From a virus, in the IMG/VR virus record IMGVR_UViG_3300034107_000243: 15,140 bases of DNA, one strand, 5' to 3'. The first letter of the stretch is position 1. The number at the start of each line of letters is the position of its first letter. Positions 8,492 to 15,140 of this stretch are shown here, piece by piece. A program made the translations under genes and the position numbers. Below the pieces are notes generated by a model, which searched no databases, had not been told where the DNA came from, and worked only from the letters and a program-made list of their open reading frames with translations.

Positions 8492-10006
8492 TTACGGCTC
8501 GACGATCCGGACGATGCCAGCCGGAAGGTAGGCAGCAGTGACGCCGTAGCCGTAGATCGCGATATCGCGACCGATCTGGCTGACATTTTCTGCCTGGGCA
8601 AGCCGGGGTCCGTCTTCGATCCACCGTGCGGCCTCACCGTTGGTGACGATCGCGTGCCGTGTCGCTGCGCCGTCGAGCCACTTGGCGCGGACGACCCGCA
8701 GGCCGGACACGTTGACCTGCAGCGTGCTCGCGGTCGCGACACCGGACACGTTCTGGACGCCGTACGGCGCCGGGTAGAACGACTCCCATCCGCCAATGGC
8801 CGTCATGAGCGCGGTCGATGCGTAGACGATGGTCGCCGGGACGCCGGTCGCGTCCTCGCACTTCATCGAGGCCTCAAATACCGTCGCCCGGAAGGTCGCA
8901 CCGGTCGTATCGGCGCTGAGATCGTAGGTTTCGGTTCCGCTGCCGAGCTGCCACATGTCATCGGTGAACTTCCGGTCCGTGACCGTCGAGTACGACGCCG
9001 CCATGATGCGGTTGTGCGCGTCGAGGTAGGAAGGCATCGACCTCTGCAGCAGCTGGTACGAGATGTCCGAACCGGCCGCGTAGGTCGCGAGGCTTGCTGT
9101 GCCCTTCTTAATGTCGATACGGACGCTGTTGACTTCGTCCTTCTCGTTGGCTTGCGCCTCAACGATCGTCGTGAGGTTGCCGTCGAAGTAGGGCCAGTTG
9201 ATGTCGAGGCCGCTGGTGCCAGCGGACTGCGGGCCGCCGACTCCGGTGATGACGGGTCGACCGAGGTCGATGATGCCCCGCACCTGCATGAGCCACACGG
9301 GCGGGAGTACGCCCGGGTTGTTGTCCGTGACCTGGTCGACAAGTGCGCGGGAATCGAATCCCTCGAGGACGGCCTTGGAGTACTCGCCGAACGAGCGGAA
9401 CTGTGCGAGCGGGTGGACGGGCTCCGCGACGTGGGCGACGGACTGGACCTCGCGGCGCAGCTCGTCGATGGCCTCGCGTGCCTGGATGTCTGCGACGACC
9501 GCCGGGGCGGCGTCCTCGACGGTTTCGACTGACATGTGATCCTCTCTGATTGAACCGACGCCTGCCGTTGAGTAGGCAGGCTGGTGGGTGAGACTCACCT
9601 CGGCCAGTGCGGCTTTGGTGTAGACGATTGCGTTCTTGCCTTGGGTCCGCTTCGATTCGAGCGGTGCGAACCCGACGGACAGGCCACGGCTCGACCCCGT
9701 CCGCATGAGCGTCGCCGCATCACGCCCGAGGCTCGTGTTGACGACGTCGAAGTCGATATACAACCCGTCCGGCTCGTTGCTTGCTGCGGTAATGACGCCG
9801 ATGGGCTCGTTGTGGCGGTATGCGAGCGGCTTGCCGACCACTGCAGCGGTATCGAATGCACCGGGCGCGAACGACTCCCGCATTCCGTCGTACTCGATCT
9901 CGACTCCGTAGGGGACGGCCATGCCGTAGCCGGTTCCGATGACGTCGCCGCCGTCGTCTGCCCTAGTGTGGAGCAGCAGCGTGCCGTCCGTCGTGAGGTG
10001 TCTCAT
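8492..10006 (-). CDS. Fusion of HK97-family prohead protease (about aa 1-155) with an HK97-fold major capsid protein (about aa 200-504), 504 aa
   Basis: The N-terminal YGMAVPYGV...ESFAPGAFD...GLSVGF...EVSLTHQPAY matches the S78/U35 prohead protease pattern. A coiled-coil-like linker follows. The C-terminal GTASLATYAAGSDISYQLLQRS... matches the Phage_capsid pattern. The ATG at 10006 abuts the portal TAG. Confidence 0.85.
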   Translation of the reverse strand: MRHLTTDGTLLLHTRADDGGDVIGTGYGMAVPYGVEIEYDGMRESFAPGAFDTAAVVGKPLAYRHNEPIGVITAASNEPDGLYIDFDVVNTSLGRDAATLMRTGSSRGLSVGFAPLESKRTQGKNAIVYTKAALAEVSLTHQPAYSTAGVGSIREDHMSVETVEDAAPAVVADIQAREAIDELRREVQSVAHVAEPVHPLAQFRSFGEYSKAVLEGFDSRALVDQVTDNNPGVLPPVWLMQVRGIIDLGRPVITGVGGPQSAGTSGLDINWPYFDGNLTTIVEAQANEKDEVNSVRIDIKKGTASLATYAAGSDISYQLLQRSMPSYLDAHNRIMAASYSTVTDRKFTDDMWQLGSGTETYDLSADTTGATFRATVFEASMKCEDATGVPATIVYASTALMTAIGGWESFYPAPYGVQNVSGVATASTLQVNVSGLRVVRAKWLDGAATRHAIVTNGEAARWIEDGPRLAQAENVSQIGRDIAIYGYGVTAAYLPAGIVRIVEP

Positions 10007-11173
10007 CTATCCGCCCATCTGTACGAGGCTCGTCGGGGTGAGTCCGAGGGTGTTGAGGTCGATGACGGTGCGGGCCTCGTCGGGGGTGAGGACGCCGAGC
10101 GGCACCAGCTGCGCGACGAGGTTGCCGAGGTCGGTTGCGTTGCCCCGCAGGAAACCGGACGTGTCGAACCTGACCGAGTGCCCTCGAGGCGTGACGTCGG
10201 GCATCGACAGCCGGTGAGTGAGCATGTCCATGACCGGGCGAAGGCTGATGTCGAGCAGTTGCCGGTACAGGTCAACGCGGTTCGAGTACGTCAGCGACGA
10301 CCCGGACACGCTGGCGCCGACCCACACGGGGTCGAGGTTCGCGATACGGGCGATTCCGATCGCGGACTCGTTGCGGGCCTCGACCAGGGCGAGATCCCGG
10401 GCGGACCATCCCATGCCCTTAGCCTCGATCGCGCTATTCAGGTAGGCCGTGGCCCTGTTGCTCCTGGCTTCTTCCCATGCGGTCAGGAGCGCGTCCACTG
10501 TTGCCGCTGGAAGGTCGGCGCCGGTGTTCTTCAGGACCACGGTCGGCATGGGGTACTCGCTGTAATTCAATGTCGCGGCCTCGAGGGCGGCGGCTGTGTT
10601 GATCGCAGCGGCACCGGTCGACAGCCAACCGCCGAGGCCGTCGCCGTAGAACTTAATGACGTCGCGGGCCGGGACTGGCGTGCCGATGTAGTAGAACGGG
10701 TCGACGGGCGGAAACTGTGTGTTCTGGTTCGCCGTCGAGTGCGTGGTGAGGTCGGACACGTCGTCGACGTCCATCACCTGCACCTCGCGAGGGAACCCAT
10801 CCCACGTCCGGTCGACCACAAGCCAGTACGCCCGGTCGTGCAGCAGCAGGTTCTCGACAGTCCTCGCAATGACCGACGTGTACGGAAGATACGAGGATGG
10901 GCTGACAAGTACCTGCGCGGTTTCGATGGGCTCGCCCCCTCGGTATGTCCGCAGGCCGAACCCGCTGATCGTGTGAGAGTACGTCTTCATCGCGTCGACG
11001 AATGCGGGGACCTGCAGCGCGGCGGCCCTCGAGGTACGGAACGACGACCCGGCGCCCTGAATCATCTGCAGCAGTGACGTCCCGGCGCCCTCCCGCAAAG
11101 CCACAGACGGCCCGCCCTCCATCGACCTTGTGGGGGACGGAGGGGCGGACCATCTCGGACGGGGAAACGCCAC
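10007..11173 (-). CDS. Portal protein (HK97 family), 388 aa from the GTG at 11173; alternative ATG at 11122 gives 371 aa
   Basis: Position between terminase and protease-capsid. Portal-like motifs (LLLHDRAYWLVV, NRATAYLNSAIEAKGMGWSARDLALVEARN). The ATG at 11122 has an AAGG SD 4 nt upstream, so the true start is uncertain. Confidence 0.85.
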   Translation of the reverse strand: MAFPRPRWSAPPSPTRSMEGGPSVALREGAGTSLLQMIQGAGSSFRTSRAAALQVPAFVDAMKTYSHTISGFGLRTYRGGEPIETAQVLVSPSSYLPYTSVIARTVENLLLHDRAYWLVVDRTWDGFPREVQVMDVDDVSDLTTHSTANQNTQFPPVDPFYYIGTPVPARDVIKFYGDGLGGWLSTGAAAINTAAALEAATLNYSEYPMPTVVLKNTGADLPAATVDALLTAWEEARSNRATAYLNSAIEAKGMGWSARDLALVEARNESAIGIARIANLDPVWVGASVSGSSLTYSNRVDLYRQLLDISLRPVMDMLTHRLSMPDVTPRGHSVRFDTSGFLRGNATDLGNLVAQLVPLGVLTPDEARTVIDLNTLGLTPTSLVQMGG

Positions 11174-11179
11174 GCGCCC

Positions 11180-11206
11180 ATATTACATGTTTATAACGAT
11201 TGTCAA
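11180..11206 (-). promoter_or_regulatory. AT-rich promoter-like element (TTGACA, 15 nt, TAATAT) between terminase and portal
   Basis: The minus strand reads TTGACAATCGTTATAAACATGTAATAT. It is the only strongly AT-rich island in the structural region. The 15-nt spacer is suboptimal, and the -35 hexamer overlaps the terminase stop. Confidence 0.2.
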
Positions 11207-12960
11207 GCACGTCGACGGCTGTGAATGATCGCCGTCGGCCGTTGCCGCTTCGTCGCCTGAGCAGCCGCGAACATCACGGCACGCGCCGCATACGAGGGGC
11301 CCTCTCCCATCGCGCTAGACAGCACCCACCCGGCGTCCCGCTTTGAGATGCGCGATGACGCGAAGTGCTCGCGCAGGACGAGGCCCCCGTCGTGGAGGAT
11401 CGAGCGCCGGTCGAACAGGTCGAGCAGCGCTTGTGTACCGGCCACCGCCTCCCGCTGGCCCACGAGTTCGTCGAAGTGCTCGTGGAGCCGGTCGACGTAT
11501 CCGGGGGTGACGAGGACGAACAACTGCGGATGCTCGGCGCGCAGCTGCGCGAGACGCTCGTCGACCTGCTTGATCGTCCGCATCGTCGACACCCGGACGA
11601 CCACGCGCTCATCCTCGAGGACACCCGCGACCGCGACCGCATGCCCTTGCCCGTCGAATGCCGACTCGACCGCGACCGTCCATGTGCTCGACTCCGGCAG
11701 GTCAACGTCCGACGTCGTGTCGGCCCACTGGCTGTCCTTGAGCCAACTGCCCGACTTCGTAACCCACTGATTGCACCACTGCCTACGGAACGACGATTCC
11801 TCAAGCGTTGAGTGCTGACGTGCCACGAACGCTTGCCGCTTGTCGGTCCACTCGGGTGACGCCCAGGCCCACGTCTCGGGCTCGTCCGGGTTAGCGTCCG
11901 CCGGCGCCGACCACTCGAGCAGCAGCGTGCTGGCTGGCGCGTCGAGCTGCTCGATCGCTGCCGAGCGATACTGAATCATGAGGTCGCTCGACGAGTCGCC
12001 TGCAGTCGAAACGAGCCACAACTGAGGCTGCTCACGCTCCGACATCGTAGGCATGACCGCGTCGTCGATGACGTTGCGAGAAATCGCCCAGCACTCGTCG
12101 GCGAATACCATGCTGCACGAGTAACCGACGCCGGCAGAATTGTTGGCCGCATGGATCAGCCAACGATCACCACTCGGCAGGCTGATGCCCGCCGCGGCAT
12201 TGCCCCACCTGACCGAGCCCTTCCCGTATCGCTCGAGCGCCCACAGGCCTGCAGGTCGTAGTACCTCCATCGCCGTGTCGCGCTTGTTTGCCATGTGCAG
12301 GATTGTCTGAGGTTCGCCAAACAGGTCCCGGTTATGGAGGCGCCACATGCAAATCCCCCGGCTCAGCCAACTTTTGCCGCTCTGTCTCCCCACGCTCAGA
12401 ACGACAACCGCCCACACCAGGCGCCCGTTCTCGTCGTGCTCGAGCGCCCGATCGAGCGCGTGCCGCTGCCAGCCTCGCAACTCCATCCCGTACACGCTCG
12501 ACAGCCATTCGGCAGCCGCTCCACCGTGAGACCCCCGCACCGTCGCAGGCGCCCTAGTTTCCAACCGGGGTCTCACCCATCCAGCCGGGTCAAACTCGGG
12601 CCGCTCAGGCCCTCCCTTAGGCGATCCGGACCCCTTGGGGGAATAAGAGGCGGGGGACATGGGGAGTGACCTAGGTGTGCCTAAAGAACGGGTTGGGCTC
12701 TTGGCGTGGAGTTTCTTCGCGAGGTTTGCGCCGTGCTTGCGGTTGCAATCGAGGTGCGAGATGCCGGCGCCGTCCATGCTGGGGAGCAGGTCGCCTGTCA
12801 GGGCTAGGGCTGGTTCATGATCGGCGCTAGCACCCCACTTGCTTGTCCTGGGCAATGTCATGTCGACAGGCATGCCGCACCTGATGCATGTGGGATCACA
12901 TGTCGCCATGACTTGAGCGACCCATTGGCGGTAACCGGGGCCTCTGCGGTGGTTGCTCAT
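11203..12960 (-). CDS. HNH endonuclease domain fused to the terminase large subunit, 585 aa
   Basis: The N-terminus carries CIRCG...SADHEPA...HLDCNRKHG (CxxC / DH / H-x2-CN-x2-H HNH motifs). A Ser/Pro/Gly linker follows. The terminase ATPase has Walker A GRQSGKS and Walker B MVFADE, followed by a nuclease domain. It is one uninterrupted ORF. Confidence 0.85.
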   Translation of the reverse strand: MSNHRRGPGYRQWVAQVMATCDPTCIRCGMPVDMTLPRTSKWGASADHEPALALTGDLLPSMDGAGISHLDCNRKHGANLAKKLHAKSPTRSLGTPRSLPMSPASYSPKGSGSPKGGPERPEFDPAGWVRPRLETRAPATVRGSHGGAAAEWLSSVYGMELRGWQRHALDRALEHDENGRLVWAVVVLSVGRQSGKSWLSRGICMWRLHNRDLFGEPQTILHMANKRDTAMEVLRPAGLWALERYGKGSVRWGNAAAGISLPSGDRWLIHAANNSAGVGYSCSMVFADECWAISRNVIDDAVMPTMSEREQPQLWLVSTAGDSSSDLMIQYRSAAIEQLDAPASTLLLEWSAPADANPDEPETWAWASPEWTDKRQAFVARQHSTLEESSFRRQWCNQWVTKSGSWLKDSQWADTTSDVDLPESSTWTVAVESAFDGQGHAVAVAGVLEDERVVVRVSTMRTIKQVDERLAQLRAEHPQLFVLVTPGYVDRLHEHFDELVGQREAVAGTQALLDLFDRRSILHDGGLVLREHFASSRISKRDAGWVLSSAMGEGPSYAARAVMFAAAQATKRQRPTAIIHSRRRA

Positions 12961-13007
12961 GTCGTCGACCCGGTGACGGTTCCATGGTGGTTAAGTACTA
13001 ACGGTTC

Positions 13008-13087
13008 GGGTGACATGGGTGTCACCCCTTGCCTCTAAGGGGGGGTGACATGGGTGTCAGGGGGGGGGTGACACGGGTGTCACCCCC
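13008..13087. repeat. Three GC-clamped 16-bp dyad sites GTGACA-YGGG-TGTCAC (13010-13025, 13045-13060, 13068-13083) flanked by G7/G9 runs
   Basis: Read directly: GGGTGACATGGGTGTCACCC, GGGGGGGTGACATGGGTGTCAGGGG, GGGGGTGACACGGGTGTCACCCCC. They overlap the last codons of the HTH_36-like gene, and the array ends (13008) 48 bp upstream of the terminase start (12960). Confidence 0.85.
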
Positions 13088-13360
13088 GACGGTGATGCGC
13101 TTGCGCCATGTCCACAGGTTTGTCCCCACCTTGTGGACGCCGCATGTGCGCTCGATCCATCCGTCTGCCTCGATCTCTCGTAGGCAACGTTGGACCTGTC
13201 GACCTGAGACACCGGCGCGCCTCGACAGGCTGGAGATGGACGGCCAGCACAGGCCGCTGTCAGTGTTGGCGTAGTCGGCGAGGGCGATCGCGACCATGCG
13301 CGTGCTCGGCGACCAGTGCGCCGGCGCGAAGTCGAGGACGAGGGCTATCGCTTGGATCAT
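13022..13360 (-). CDS. Winged-helix DNA-binding protein (HTH_36-like), 112 aa; possible replication initiator or small-terminase substitute
   Basis: VAIALADYANTDSGLCWPSISSLSRRAGVSGRQVQRCLREIEADGWIER matches the HTH_36 pattern. ATGA overlap with the upstream gene (13357-13360). The C-terminal 20 aa are encoded by the dyad repeats. Confidence 0.7.
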   Translation of the reverse strand: MIQAIALVLDFAPAHWSPSTRMVAIALADYANTDSGLCWPSISSLSRRAGVSGRQVQRCLREIEADGWIERTCGVHKVGTNLWTWRKRITVGGDTRVTPPLTPMSPPLRGKG

Positions 13361-13608
13361 CTGTTCACCTTGCGCCTAAGTCGCTTGCGTTGGGCGTACA
13401 TGGCCTCGCATTGCTTGCAGCGCCATCGCACGTCAGCCCATCTCATCGAATGGCCACGGATGCATACGCCTTTTATCGCCGATATCGAGCGTTTCTGTCC
13501 CCTCAGTGTGGGCAGTTGCTTGTCGATGTTGTGCCGCTCGCATTGCTCGCAGATGTCGAGCACATCGATGGGTTCCTCACATGTCGCGCACCTCACGATG
13601 TCACCCAC
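13357..13608 (-). CDS. Cys-rich zinc-ribbon protein with a basic C-terminus, 83 aa
   Basis: Three CxxC pairs (CATC, CEQC, CKQC) plus VCIRGH, and the tail RKRLRRKVNR. G/C predominates at third codon positions. Confidence 0.55.
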   Translation of the reverse strand: MGDIVRCATCEEPIDVLDICEQCERHNIDKQLPTLRGQKRSISAIKGVCIRGHSMRWADVRWRCKQCEAMYAQRKRLRRKVNR

Positions 13609-14249
13609 GGGTCGTCTTCGACGGGGCCCTTCGACCTCGAGGCCGGCGGGGTCGCCGACTTGAGCAGCGCGTCAATGATGACCGAGGCTTGAGCCTTGCT
13701 GAGTGCGCCAAGGCCCTCGACTGGCAGCTCGAACCCGAGCGACTGCGAGCAGTAGTCGGCTAGGACGGCTTCGTTTATGTGCTGTTTCGACATCGTCGAC
13801 CGCAGCAGGCCGATTTGTTTCGGGGTCGCCGGTGTGGCGCCTTCCTGCCGGTGGCCTCCCGAGGGTGTCCGGTAGGAGCCCATCTCGGCAGACTTCGCCT
13901 GCACCGGGTCGGCCTGTGCTGCCTGTGCCGAGCGGACTTCATTCGCCGAGGCGATGCCTTTGTGGACTGCGATGCCGATACTCGAGCAGGCTCTGCCCCA
14001 TGCGCTGGTTTCGCCGTTCATGAGTTCCGAGCCCTTCGTGTAGGGCGTGCGTCCCGGGATCGGCTCCCAAGCGTGACCGATGCCAGGTCGTGCGTCCTCA
14101 GGCGACCTGTAGGCGTAGGCCTTCACAACGAGCCACTGTTCGCCGTCGCGCATGACGTAGTCCCATTCCGACTGCAGTGAGCCGGTCGGATAGAGCTCGA
14201 TGAATTGCCTGATGCGTTCTGAGACTTCGACGTAATCCTCACGCGCCAT
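13593..14249 (-). CDS. Putative ssDNA-annealing / ssDNA-binding protein (ERF/Rad52-like core), 218 aa
   Basis: The start is taken at the ATG at 14249 (MAREDYVEV...), preceded by GGGGTGAG. The core ...WLVVKAYAY...GETSAWGRACSSIGIAVHKGIAS resembles the ERF-type GxTSYARKYxLxGLFGI segment. The assignment is by eye only. Confidence 0.45.
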   Translation of the reverse strand: MAREDYVEVSERIRQFIELYPTGSLQSEWDYVMRDGEQWLVVKAYAYRSPEDARPGIGHAWEPIPGRTPYTKGSELMNGETSAWGRACSSIGIAVHKGIASANEVRSAQAAQADPVQAKSAEMGSYRTPSGGHRQEGATPATPKQIGLLRSTMSKQHINEAVLADYCSQSLGFELPVEGLGALSKAQASVIIDALLKSATPPASRSKGPVEDDPWVTS

Positions 14250-14541
14250 CGTTCTCACCCCAAAGCACCATAGCGAGGTTGGCCGCTTTGATTGTCTGTG
14301 AGTGCACGGGTCCCCAGCACGCTGCACACTCCTGCTCGAGCGTGACTGCAAGGGCTCGGGCGCGGTCGCGCTCGTCTCGTAGTGCTGCGCCCTTGTGGGC
14401 GAGGCTTGTCGCCATTGCTTGGTATTCCCTCATGATCCCCGTTAGGCGGTTATTGCTGTCCGACAACGTGTTGATGACGCCGAGCAGGTCTGCGACGGTT
14501 AGATCAATTTCTTCCTCATTCGGGCGGTTCATTTCGTACAT
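14239..14541 (-). CDS. Hypothetical helical protein, 100 aa (MYEMNRPNEEEIDL...)
   Basis: The ATG at 14541 is preceded by a strong SD, AGGAAGGGGAAACC. The ORF-track extension to 14658 runs through the repeat array and is rejected. Confidence 0.6.
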   Translation of the reverse strand: MYEMNRPNEEEIDLTVADLLGVINTLSDSNNRLTGIMREYQAMATSLAHKGAALRDERDRARALAVTLEQECAACWGPVHSQTIKAANLAMVLWGENDGA

Positions 14542-14554
14542 GGTTTCCCCTTCC

Positions 14555-14763
14555 TGTCTACCTCTATACAGTTTGTTGTCTAGTGGTAGATATCTAGTGC
14601 TAGACACGGTTGTGTCTAGCGGTATACGGATTCTGTCTAGTGCTGTGCAAGGTTCCATGACGGAAACCTGTCTAGTGTTGTGCAGTTTGTGTCTAGTGCT
14701 AGATATCTAGACGTAGACAATCGCTTGTCTAGGCCTATACATGATCTTGTCTAGTGGTAGACG
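14555..14763. promoter_or_regulatory. Array of ten 16-bp dyad sites TGTCTA-N4-TAGACA-like (operator or iteron array) in the main intergenic region
   Basis: Sites start at 14555, 14577, 14591, 14613, 14634, 14669, 14690, 14704, 14726 and 14748. Eight direct TGTCTA(G/C) cores are spaced 21-22 or 35-36 bp apart. A 52-bp submodule (14577-14628) is repeated at 14690-14741. The region is locally AT-richer. Confidence 0.85.
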
Positions 14764-14890
14764 GCTCCACGGATTCCGTCTTCAGGTAGGCCAGCCTCAG
14801 GGATTGCAGTTGGGCGATTACCTCGAGGCGTGCGTCCCATGTGAGCAGCGCAAACTCCCGAGGGCTCGGCAGTCGCTTGGGCGCCCTCAC
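14735..14890 (-). CDS. Hypothetical small protein, 51 aa (GTG start)
   Basis: The GTG at 14890 overlaps the upstream TGA as GTGA. Moderate G/C bias at third codon positions. The 3' end runs into dyad sites 14726 and 14748. Weak call. Confidence 0.35.
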   Translation of the reverse strand: MRAPKRLPSPREFALLTWDARLEVIAQLQSLRLAYLKTESVEPSTTRQDHV

Positions 14891-15111
14891 TGCTGATTCC
14901 TGACGTACTCGGCGTAGGCCGTGTAAGCCCACTGATACGCGGCCACGCCCTTCAGCCCGTGCTCGTCGCGGGCCTCGATCAGATAGCCCGTGTATGTCGG
15001 CTCGGGCTCCTGATGCTGGTGCCTGTAGTGAATGGCGAACGCTGTCGCGCCACCGTGGCCGTTAGCGGCGCACAGTGTGCAGCGCCACGAATACGTCGCT
15101 GGTTCTAGCAT
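14887..15111 (-). CDS. Small Cys/His protein with a C2H2-like zinc-finger pattern, 74 aa (alternative GTG start at 15138)
   Basis: The pattern is CTLC-x13-H-x2-H-x-H (RCTLCAANGHGGATAFAIHYRHQH). The ATG at 15111 is preceded by GAAGG and overlaps the SLT-like gene stop (the equivalent of 92-94) by 7 nt once the circle is closed. Confidence 0.5.
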   Translation of the reverse strand: MLEPATYSWRCTLCAANGHGGATAFAIHYRHQHQEPEPTYTGYLIEARDEHGLKGVAAYQWAYTAYAEYVRNQQ

Positions 15112-15140
15112 GGGTACGCCTTCACATATTGGACCCACAC
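15014..15140. repeat. Right copy of the exact 127-bp terminal overlap
   Basis: Identical to 1-127. Confidence 0.95.

Follow-up and report, generated by a model that had tools for sequence, protein, structure and literature searches.

We analysed a window of 15,140 nucleotides of viral DNA (IMG/VR record IMGVR_UViG_3300034107_000243; the window is this whole stretch), with particular attention to three closely similar inverted repeats, hereafter dyads, which overlap the 3' end of the gene for a small winged-helix (WH) protein and which we interpret as the probable binding sites of a replication initiator. The window was assembled as a circle and begins and ends with the same 127 bp, an exact direct repeat (1-127 = 15014-15140), as obtained from a circular assembly with k=127. 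With this 127-bp overlap removed, the genome itself measures about 15,013 bp; contig start points vary among relatives. Every gene of the window lies on the minus strand. In that direction, the WH open reading frame (ORF) comes first, with the dyads over its last 20 codons, followed by a 48-bp gap, the ORF of HNH-TerL, the portal gene and a gene for a protease-capsid fusion. The features of the locus are, in order of transcription:

13022-13360, minus strand: 112-residue WH protein (Pfam HTH_36), the proposed dyad-binding protein.
13068-13083, minus strand: dyad 1, GTGACACCCGTGTCAC, inside the WH ORF and read in the frame GGT GAC.
13045-13060, minus strand: dyad 2, cTGACACCCATGTCAC, inside the WH ORF and read in the frame CTG ACA.
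13010-13025, minus strand: dyad 3, GTGACACCCATGTCAC, whose TGA (13022-13024) is the WH stop codon.
12974-13007, minus strand: GAACC block, GAACCGTTAGTACTTAACCACCATGGAACCGTCA, a candidate unwinding or helicase-loading region.
11203-12960, minus strand: HNH-TerL, 585 residues, composed of an HNH domain (residues about 1-98), a linker with cos, and the large terminase; the next gene downstream of the array.

On the plus strand, the three sites read GTGACATGGGTGTCAC (13010-13025), GTGACATGGGTGTCAg (13045-13060) and GTGACACGGGTGTCAC (13068-13083). They share the core TGAC-N6-GTCA, and their starts at 13010, 13045 and 13068 give spacings of 35 and 23 bp, exactly as in a preliminary description made from the sequence of this DNA. 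Its other positional claims were equally accurate: G/C runs lengthen dyad 1 to a 24-bp palindrome (13064-13087) with 11-nt arms (13064-13074 and 13077-13087) that are 100% complementary, and the array occupies the last 20 WH codons and ends 48 bp before the HNH-terminase start (12960). The WH ORF reads through dyads 1 and 2 and terminates at the TGA inside dyad 3. Dyad 2 has one half-site with an off-consensus outer base and is flanked by C-runs on both sides, whereas dyad 3 is the best-conserved copy and is the one adjoining the GAACC block, in distant phages too. The two half-sites of a dyad, GTGACA and TGTCAC, are 10 bp apart from centre to centre and therefore lie on the same face of the helix.

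The 15-mer GTGACAYGGGTGTCA has three exact matches, against 0.11 expected within two mismatches (200 shuffles). The preliminary description had seen no repetition of the motif elsewhere, and this stands insofar as no other conserved copy exists; the bare core TGAC-N6-GTCA does recur at 427, 5288 and 7222, giving six occurrences in total against 0.36 expected. These three additional occurrences are not conserved in relatives and were taken as chance. The genomes of the complete relatives L051, L080 and L091 contain no TGAC-N6-GTCA sites other than the three dyads.

Relatives were gathered by searches with the terminase and with the WH protein. Across 24 distinct sequences of the family, the TGAC and GTCA cores are unchanged and the six central bases vary freely, including flips from CCCA to TGGG; the centres of dyad 2 alone comprise CCCA, CCAG, CCGG, CTGG and the flipped TGGG. 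More distant lineages carry different half-sites. WH proteins with the helix RQVQRC/H are associated with the half-site GGGGTGACA, L172 (helix RQVRRH) has the half-site GGGCGGACA and the dyad GGGCGGACA-TGGG-CGTCCGCCC, L038 (helix RQVRIH) has the half-site GGGCGGAAG and the dyad GGGCGGAAG-CCCA-CTTCCGCC, and L174 has a half-site of the GGAGGACA type. L172, L038 and L174 each possess three copies at the same location, and all three copies within a genome change together. The four half-site classes thus distinguished track both the WH lineage and the sequence of the recognition helix, as initiator-binding sites of an origin would.

The position of the stop codon is less constant: it lies past dyad 1 in L177, whose dyads are 23 and 36 bp apart, within dyad 3 in the window, and beyond the array in P0013. 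Two reading frames allow the motif to be translated without an in-frame TGA, and it occurs equally in both (17 and 16 cases). Disorder is predicted for the tail that the dyads encode, residues 90-112 of the WH protein. For these reasons, the conserved tail peptide TPPLTPMSP was rejected as the object of selection, and the sites are considered to act at the level of DNA rather than of peptide.

The preliminary description had also suggested that the dyads work as tandem hairpins in RNA, in which case three G+C-rich stems would terminate, pause or stabilise the early transcript and so separate early from late expression. The one-strand gene layout implies that the array is transcribed, and its sense-strand RNA can indeed fold (-58.1 kcal/mol, z = -2.6 relative to shuffled sequences), dyad 1 giving a hairpin of 10 bp. 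However, no U-tract follows any of the hairpins, a terminator scan found no terminator-like site at the array, and the Rfam search and the tRNA search gave no match. Nor do the stems covary: among 19 relatives, 14 of the 25 stem pairs never vary and one changes on both sides, while pairing is lost at the inner pair of dyad 1 in nine relatives and at the outer pairs of dyad 2 in ten. Many relatives have half-sites as repeat units, and the direct repeats of half-sites found in distant relatives are unable to form hairpins. A role in RNA also offers no reason for three hairpins to share one stem sequence or to change it jointly, and we regard it as very unlikely. The conserved feature is a symmetrically read sequence, of the kind that a dimeric DNA-binding protein would be expected to recognise.

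The best candidate for such a protein is encoded by the gene that carries the array. The WH protein matches Pfam HTH_36 with an E value of 7e-11 and 12 PHROG families with E values down to 1e-12; these families are labelled replication initiation, O-like, primosomal and DnaD-like loader, labels which are family names at the level of annotation rather than tested functions. All PHROG matches fall in the N-terminal WH domain of those families. On these matches, the WH protein is a homologue of the N-terminal DNA-binding domain of O-like phage replication initiators.

The motif proved to be linked to such initiators well beyond this family. A blind scan of all viral contigs with the bare DNA pattern TGACACCCRTGTCAC returned 114 loci outside the family, 36 of which encode a WH homologue. 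In 35 of these 36, the motif follows the WH domain on its 3' side in the same reading frame, no more than 600 nt from the WH match, in ORFs of about 120-390 residues; the remaining 319 kb or so of these loci contain one other WH homologue. All 34 ORFs tested (32 from the scan, one from L040 and gp46 of phage Kuleana) match PHROG replication-initiation families, every one of them phrog_270, with E values down to 7e-43. Their neighbours encode RusA, Rad52, SSB, ParB, an IstB/DnaC-like ATPase, a G39P-type loader and methylases, and no terminase was found among the neighbours of these motif-bearing initiator genes. The genomic G+C content of the phages concerned ranges from 39% to 73%.

The arrays in these unrelated phages consist of 3-7 units, in which the GGTGACA half alone is often repeated, and their last unit is a perfect dyad, after which come CCC(G/A)AAC and an AT-rich stretch. 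Over 34 unrelated loci, GTGACA occurs 7.1 times per kb after the WH helix and 0.15 times per kb elsewhere, a 48-fold difference. Half of the spacings (38/76) measure 22-23 bp, and others cluster at 33-36 and 44 bp. L040, a 79-kb viral contig, has three copies in the middle of the gene for a 301-residue protein, beside a Toprim-DnaB primase-helicase. Two cultured phages were also recovered. Bifidobacterium phage PMBT6 (L178, MH444512) carries 6-7 copies of GGGGTGACACCCATGTCACC at 2460-2640, in a gene for an "HTH domain-containing protein" next to SSB. Arthrobacter phage Kuleana (L162, RefSeq NC_049473) has, at 2780-2944 in gp46, labelled "replication initiation protein", a WH domain, five copies of GGGGTGCAC that are mostly 22 bp apart, four copies of the 11-bp repeat GAACCGTCCTT, and a C-terminal domain.

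The repeats are not annotated in the PMBT6 and Kuleana records, and the motif and its recurrence across phages appear unannotated in these records. A literature search with the motif as a string gave one irrelevant match, in a table of sigma-70 promoters, which is not proof that the motif is undescribed. The paper on actinobacteriophage origins that was found deals with origins based on RepA or on RNA, and it reports no comparable repeats.

With regard to the DNA next to the dyads, the GAACC block carries the only two copies of GAACCGTYA in the genome, 25 bp apart. It is nearly invariant across the 24 family sequences and is retained in lineages with different dyad half-sites. The block corresponds to the four 11-bp GAACCGTCCTT repeats of Kuleana gp46. 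A decrease in G+C content at this point is common in the unrelated phages, where the 60 nt past the last dyad are below the value of the locus in 27 of 34 cases. On the other side of the array, two 8/9 matches to the DnaA box TTRTCCACA, the only ones in the window, lie 12 bp apart at 13108-13128, in codons of the WH wing (NLWTW) and 25-45 bp from the dyads; the genome-wide count of such matches is not above chance. Perfect TTATCCACA DnaA boxes are present beside the arrays of L125 and L174.

Taken together, we consider it probable, at roughly 0.65, that the dyads are the initiator-binding sites (iterons) of a lambda-style origin, both the binding and the origin activity being deduced from sequence comparisons. 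The preliminary description had mentioned origin iterons within an initiator gene as one of its options, and this option fits the family of the WH protein, the presence of the motif in O-like genes, the joint change of sites and protein, and the helical spacing. Two features of lambda-type origins are evident in the window: three repeats lie within and over the initiator's own coding sequence and stop codon, and the sites are spaced in helical phase. In the mechanism that we propose, the 112-residue WH protein would bind each dyad as a symmetric dimer. As the dyads are 23 and 35 bp apart, or about two and three helical turns, the bound dimers would be aligned on one face of the DNA and could form a higher-order complex. 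This complex would then destabilise the adjoining GAACC block, which is lower in G+C, and host replication proteins would be loaded there.

Several observations weigh against this origin model. The GAACC block is just mildly AT-rich, with a G+C content of 0.50-0.55 compared with 0.64 for the genome. The C-terminal part of lambda O recruits the helicase loader, whereas a tblastn search with the C-terminal domains of Kuleana gp46 and of L040 found no counterpart anywhere in the window. The initiator would here consist of the DNA-binding domain only, lacking the C-terminal domain of its longer homologues, which would be unusual, and since the helicase-recruiting domain has no counterpart, the manner in which such a protein would recruit a helicase is unexplained. 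For the same reason, we count the element as a variant of the lambda-type origin and not as a standard member. A fold search gave a generic winged helix, with the transcription regulators RbkR, Fur and MarR as the best matches in the PDB; the N-terminal domains of plasmid RepA (4pql and 5kbj) appeared only at ranks 30 and 48. As the matches are generic, the fold search cannot separate an initiator from a regulator, and a sequence search of the PDB with the WH protein gave no meaningful match.

A further difficulty for the origin model is a second repeat array at 14555-14765, in the only part of the genome with a low G+C content (54%). It comprises seven sense copies of CTAGACA, at spacings of 22, 36, 21, 35, 21 and 36 bp, plus inverted copies, and covers the 5' end of the ORF at 14239-14658 (minus strand) and the region upstream. 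The close relatives L051 and L091 share this array, but it is missing from L080, from L177 and from the part of L172 that was sequenced. The array probably serves as an early promoter/operator region, or else is an alternative or second origin candidate. As a universal origin it is unlikely, because relatives that keep the dyads are without it. Its rhythm of 22 and 36 bp resembles the 23 and 35 bp of the dyads.

The main rival to the origin model is a purely regulatory role of the same protein-DNA complex. In this case, the dyads would be operators, and the protein, reduced to a WH domain and no longer an initiator, would act as a dimeric transcription regulator that blocks or times late read-through or controls its own expression. 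The absence of a recognisable helicase-recruiting domain is consistent with this, as is the fact that the closest structural matches are dimeric winged helix-turn-helix repressors that bind palindromes. The sites are true palindromes, not direct repeats, and the array lies exactly where the early genes give way to the late operon (HNH-TerL and structural genes). There is also a likeness to the Rep dimers of iteron plasmids, which repress their own promoters through inverted repeats. Nevertheless, no sigma-70-like promoter was detected at or near the array, although this consensus may not fit the promoters of the host. Moreover, the same arrays occur mid-gene in full-length O-like initiators of replication modules, where an operator role is unlikely, and operators would leave unexplained why a conserved GAACC block invariably comes after the last dyad. 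We therefore judge an exclusively regulatory function to be unlikely, albeit with an appreciable chance of being correct. Regulation and origin activity are compatible, and a dual role is possible.

The proximity of the array to HNH-TerL had led the preliminary description to propose cos/pac or terminase-binding sites. On this reading, the dyads would be comparable to the R sites of lambda cosB: a small terminase, a part that the WH protein itself could play, would recognise them and direct cutting and packaging. A gene for a small terminase is not recognisable beside TerL, the array lies just upstream of HNH-TerL, and three repeats of about 16 bp next to a winged-helix protein recall the R sites and Nu1 of lambda. 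The ends of the genome were located from the contig termini of independent metagenome assemblies, which serve as a proxy for reads, and these converge on another site. The relevant features, with positions given as those of the window, are:

12652-12665, minus strand: inferred cohesive-end segment (cos), TCCCCATGTCCCCC, 14 nt, bracketed by 17 contig termini.
WH/HNH-side ends of L023, L032, L036, L166, L168 and L170: exactly at ...TCAC (12666).
WH/HNH-side end of L176: 1 nt before ...TCAC (12666).
WH/HNH-side ends of L167 and L169: 5-6 nt beyond 12666.
Terminase-side starts of L015, L016, L017 and L163: at GCC (12651).
Terminase-side starts of L014, L020 and L165: at most 2 nt from 12651.
Terminase-side start of L013: at 12665.

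Nine contig ends and eight contig starts (at 12650-12653 or 12665) thus make up the 17 termini, where about 0.1 would be expected by chance, and the 14 nt are absent from most contigs on both sides. The dyad region, despite its far more extreme composition, breaks one or two assemblies at most (L001 starts inside dyad 3). The cos segment corresponds to codons 99-103 of HNH-TerL, in the linker between the HNH and ATPase domains. It is flanked by conserved sequence (CCCGTTCTTTAG upstream and TTATyCCCCCAAGGGG downstream, within 12628-12692), even at about 55% identity. The cos ends of actinobacteriophages are typically 3' overhangs. We infer the same polarity here, because end-repair would strip a 3' overhang and leave contigs without the 14 nt. 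In none of the relatives examined, even in lineages at about 55% identity, is the HNH-TerL frame interrupted at cos. Since the frame runs through cos, the terminase gene would be intact only on circularised or concatemeric DNA.

The physical ends consequently lie about 345 bp downstream of the dyads, and the conserved sequence directly flanks the cut. In addition, the cut lies between the array and the terminase and head genes, whereas cosB of lambda is on the same side as these genes. A relative of 14.5 kb, L164, resembles the window in its homologous HNH-TerL (TerL 54% identical) and in its type of cos sequence, yet no WH gene or dyads were found in the available 1.5 kb upstream of its terminase. 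A zinc-ribbon gene adjoins the terminase instead (3.8 kb read), and the upstream region contains no repeats and hence no substitute array. The WH gene and the dyads accordingly behave as an exchangeable module, and in the 35 other phages the motif is found in replication modules and never beside a terminase. Judging from these comparisons, the dyads are linked to the WH gene rather than to the terminase, and a function as cos/pac or terminase-binding sites is not supported and is very unlikely.

If the dyads form an origin, three broader proposals follow, which we put forward jointly and tentatively, as they are more doubtful than the origin itself. First, a single WH domain of about 90 residues, three dyads and a GAACC block of about 35 bp may suffice as a minimal origin module, with host factors only. 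Second, TGACA-N4-TGTCA dyads followed by a GAACC block could represent an unannotated origin signature that is usable to predict origins. Third, an origin about 345 bp from a cos located inside the terminase ORF might link replication, terminase expression and packaging. In the minimal module, the stop codon of the initiator is supplied by its own last binding site.

Phage genomes rarely have annotated origins. Should our interpretation be correct, both the origin and the cos site would be fixed for an abundant, uncultured group of phages of about 15 kb with high G+C content. The combination of a WH domain, GTGACA-type repeats 22-23 bp apart and a GAACC block, found in dozens of unrelated phages, could allow origins to be predicted from sequence. 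An initiator that consists only of a DNA-binding domain would also raise the question of the minimum contribution that a phage must make to recruit the replisome of its host.

Some additional properties of the group were noted. L172, a contig of 15.5 kb with a WH protein 56% identical to that of the window, encodes a tyrosine integrase at 1-129, and part of this phage group is probably temperate; no integrase match was found among the scanned ORFs of the window. A search of cultured phages gave no near-identity DNA match to 11000-15140. The metagenomic sources of the group include lake water. One further gene of the window deserves mention:

8492-10006, minus strand: protease-capsid fusion, an ORF of 504 residues with Peptidase_S78 at residues 14-155 and phrog_2263 (major capsid) over residues 28-502.

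Protease-capsid fusions occur in other very small siphoviruses.

Among known systems, the origin of phage lambda and its initiator O, together with those of the Stx phages P27 and 933W, offer a functional parallel. There, too, the origin lies inside the initiator gene and consists of repeated sites followed by an AT-richer tract. Lambda O is a dimeric initiator, and a dimer is likewise proposed for the WH protein. However, the site sequence and the protein family differ, and the likeness rests on the O-like labels of PHROG families and not on a comparison with lambda O. The window has three sites compared with 4-6 in lambda, its protein ends in the last repeat and is without a C-terminal domain, and its AT-richer tract falls beyond the end of the gene, in the 48 bp that precede HNH-TerL. 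No gene for a P-like loader was found in the phage. In the initiators of lambda and the Stx phages, the repeats encode a linker whose length varies with the number of repeats (PMC7466680).

The three short repeats near a terminase gene and the winged-helix protein encoded alongside also resemble the R sites of lambda cosB and Nu1. In contrast to that system, about 345 bp separate the array from the inferred cos, the array is on the far side of the cut, and the motif travels with replication genes. The iteron plasmids (Rep of pPS10, F and R6K; RepA of pSK41/pTZ2162) share with the window a winged-helix initiator, repeats with a periodicity of about 22 bp and an adjoining unwinding element, and RepA N-terminal domains 4pql and 5kbj are weak structural matches of the WH protein. 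In these plasmids, the direct repeats of the origin are occupied by monomers, and the inverted repeats of the rep promoter by dimers, which repress it, whereas the candidate origin sites of the window are themselves inverted repeats. Rep makes sequence-specific contacts with the unwinding element (PMC4081077).

Further parallels to the element are found among the phages that share its motif or its layout. L040 and PMBT6 have the same TGACACCC(A/G)TGTCAC dyads, in three and 6-7 copies respectively, directly after an HTH_36 WH domain and followed by CCC(G/A)AAC and an AT-rich stretch. They differ in that the motifs lie in the middle of genes for proteins of about 300 residues, with WH domains about 33% identical to that of the window. 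Kuleana gp46 has a WH domain that is 39% identical over residues 2-81 and the same layout, including repeats of the GAACCGTCC type. Its five GGGGTGCAC repeats are direct and do not form dyads, its 265 residues include a C-terminal domain, and its function is assigned by annotation. As cultured phages, PMBT6, with the same motif, and Kuleana, with the same layout and different repeats, provide experimentally accessible models for this type of candidate origin.

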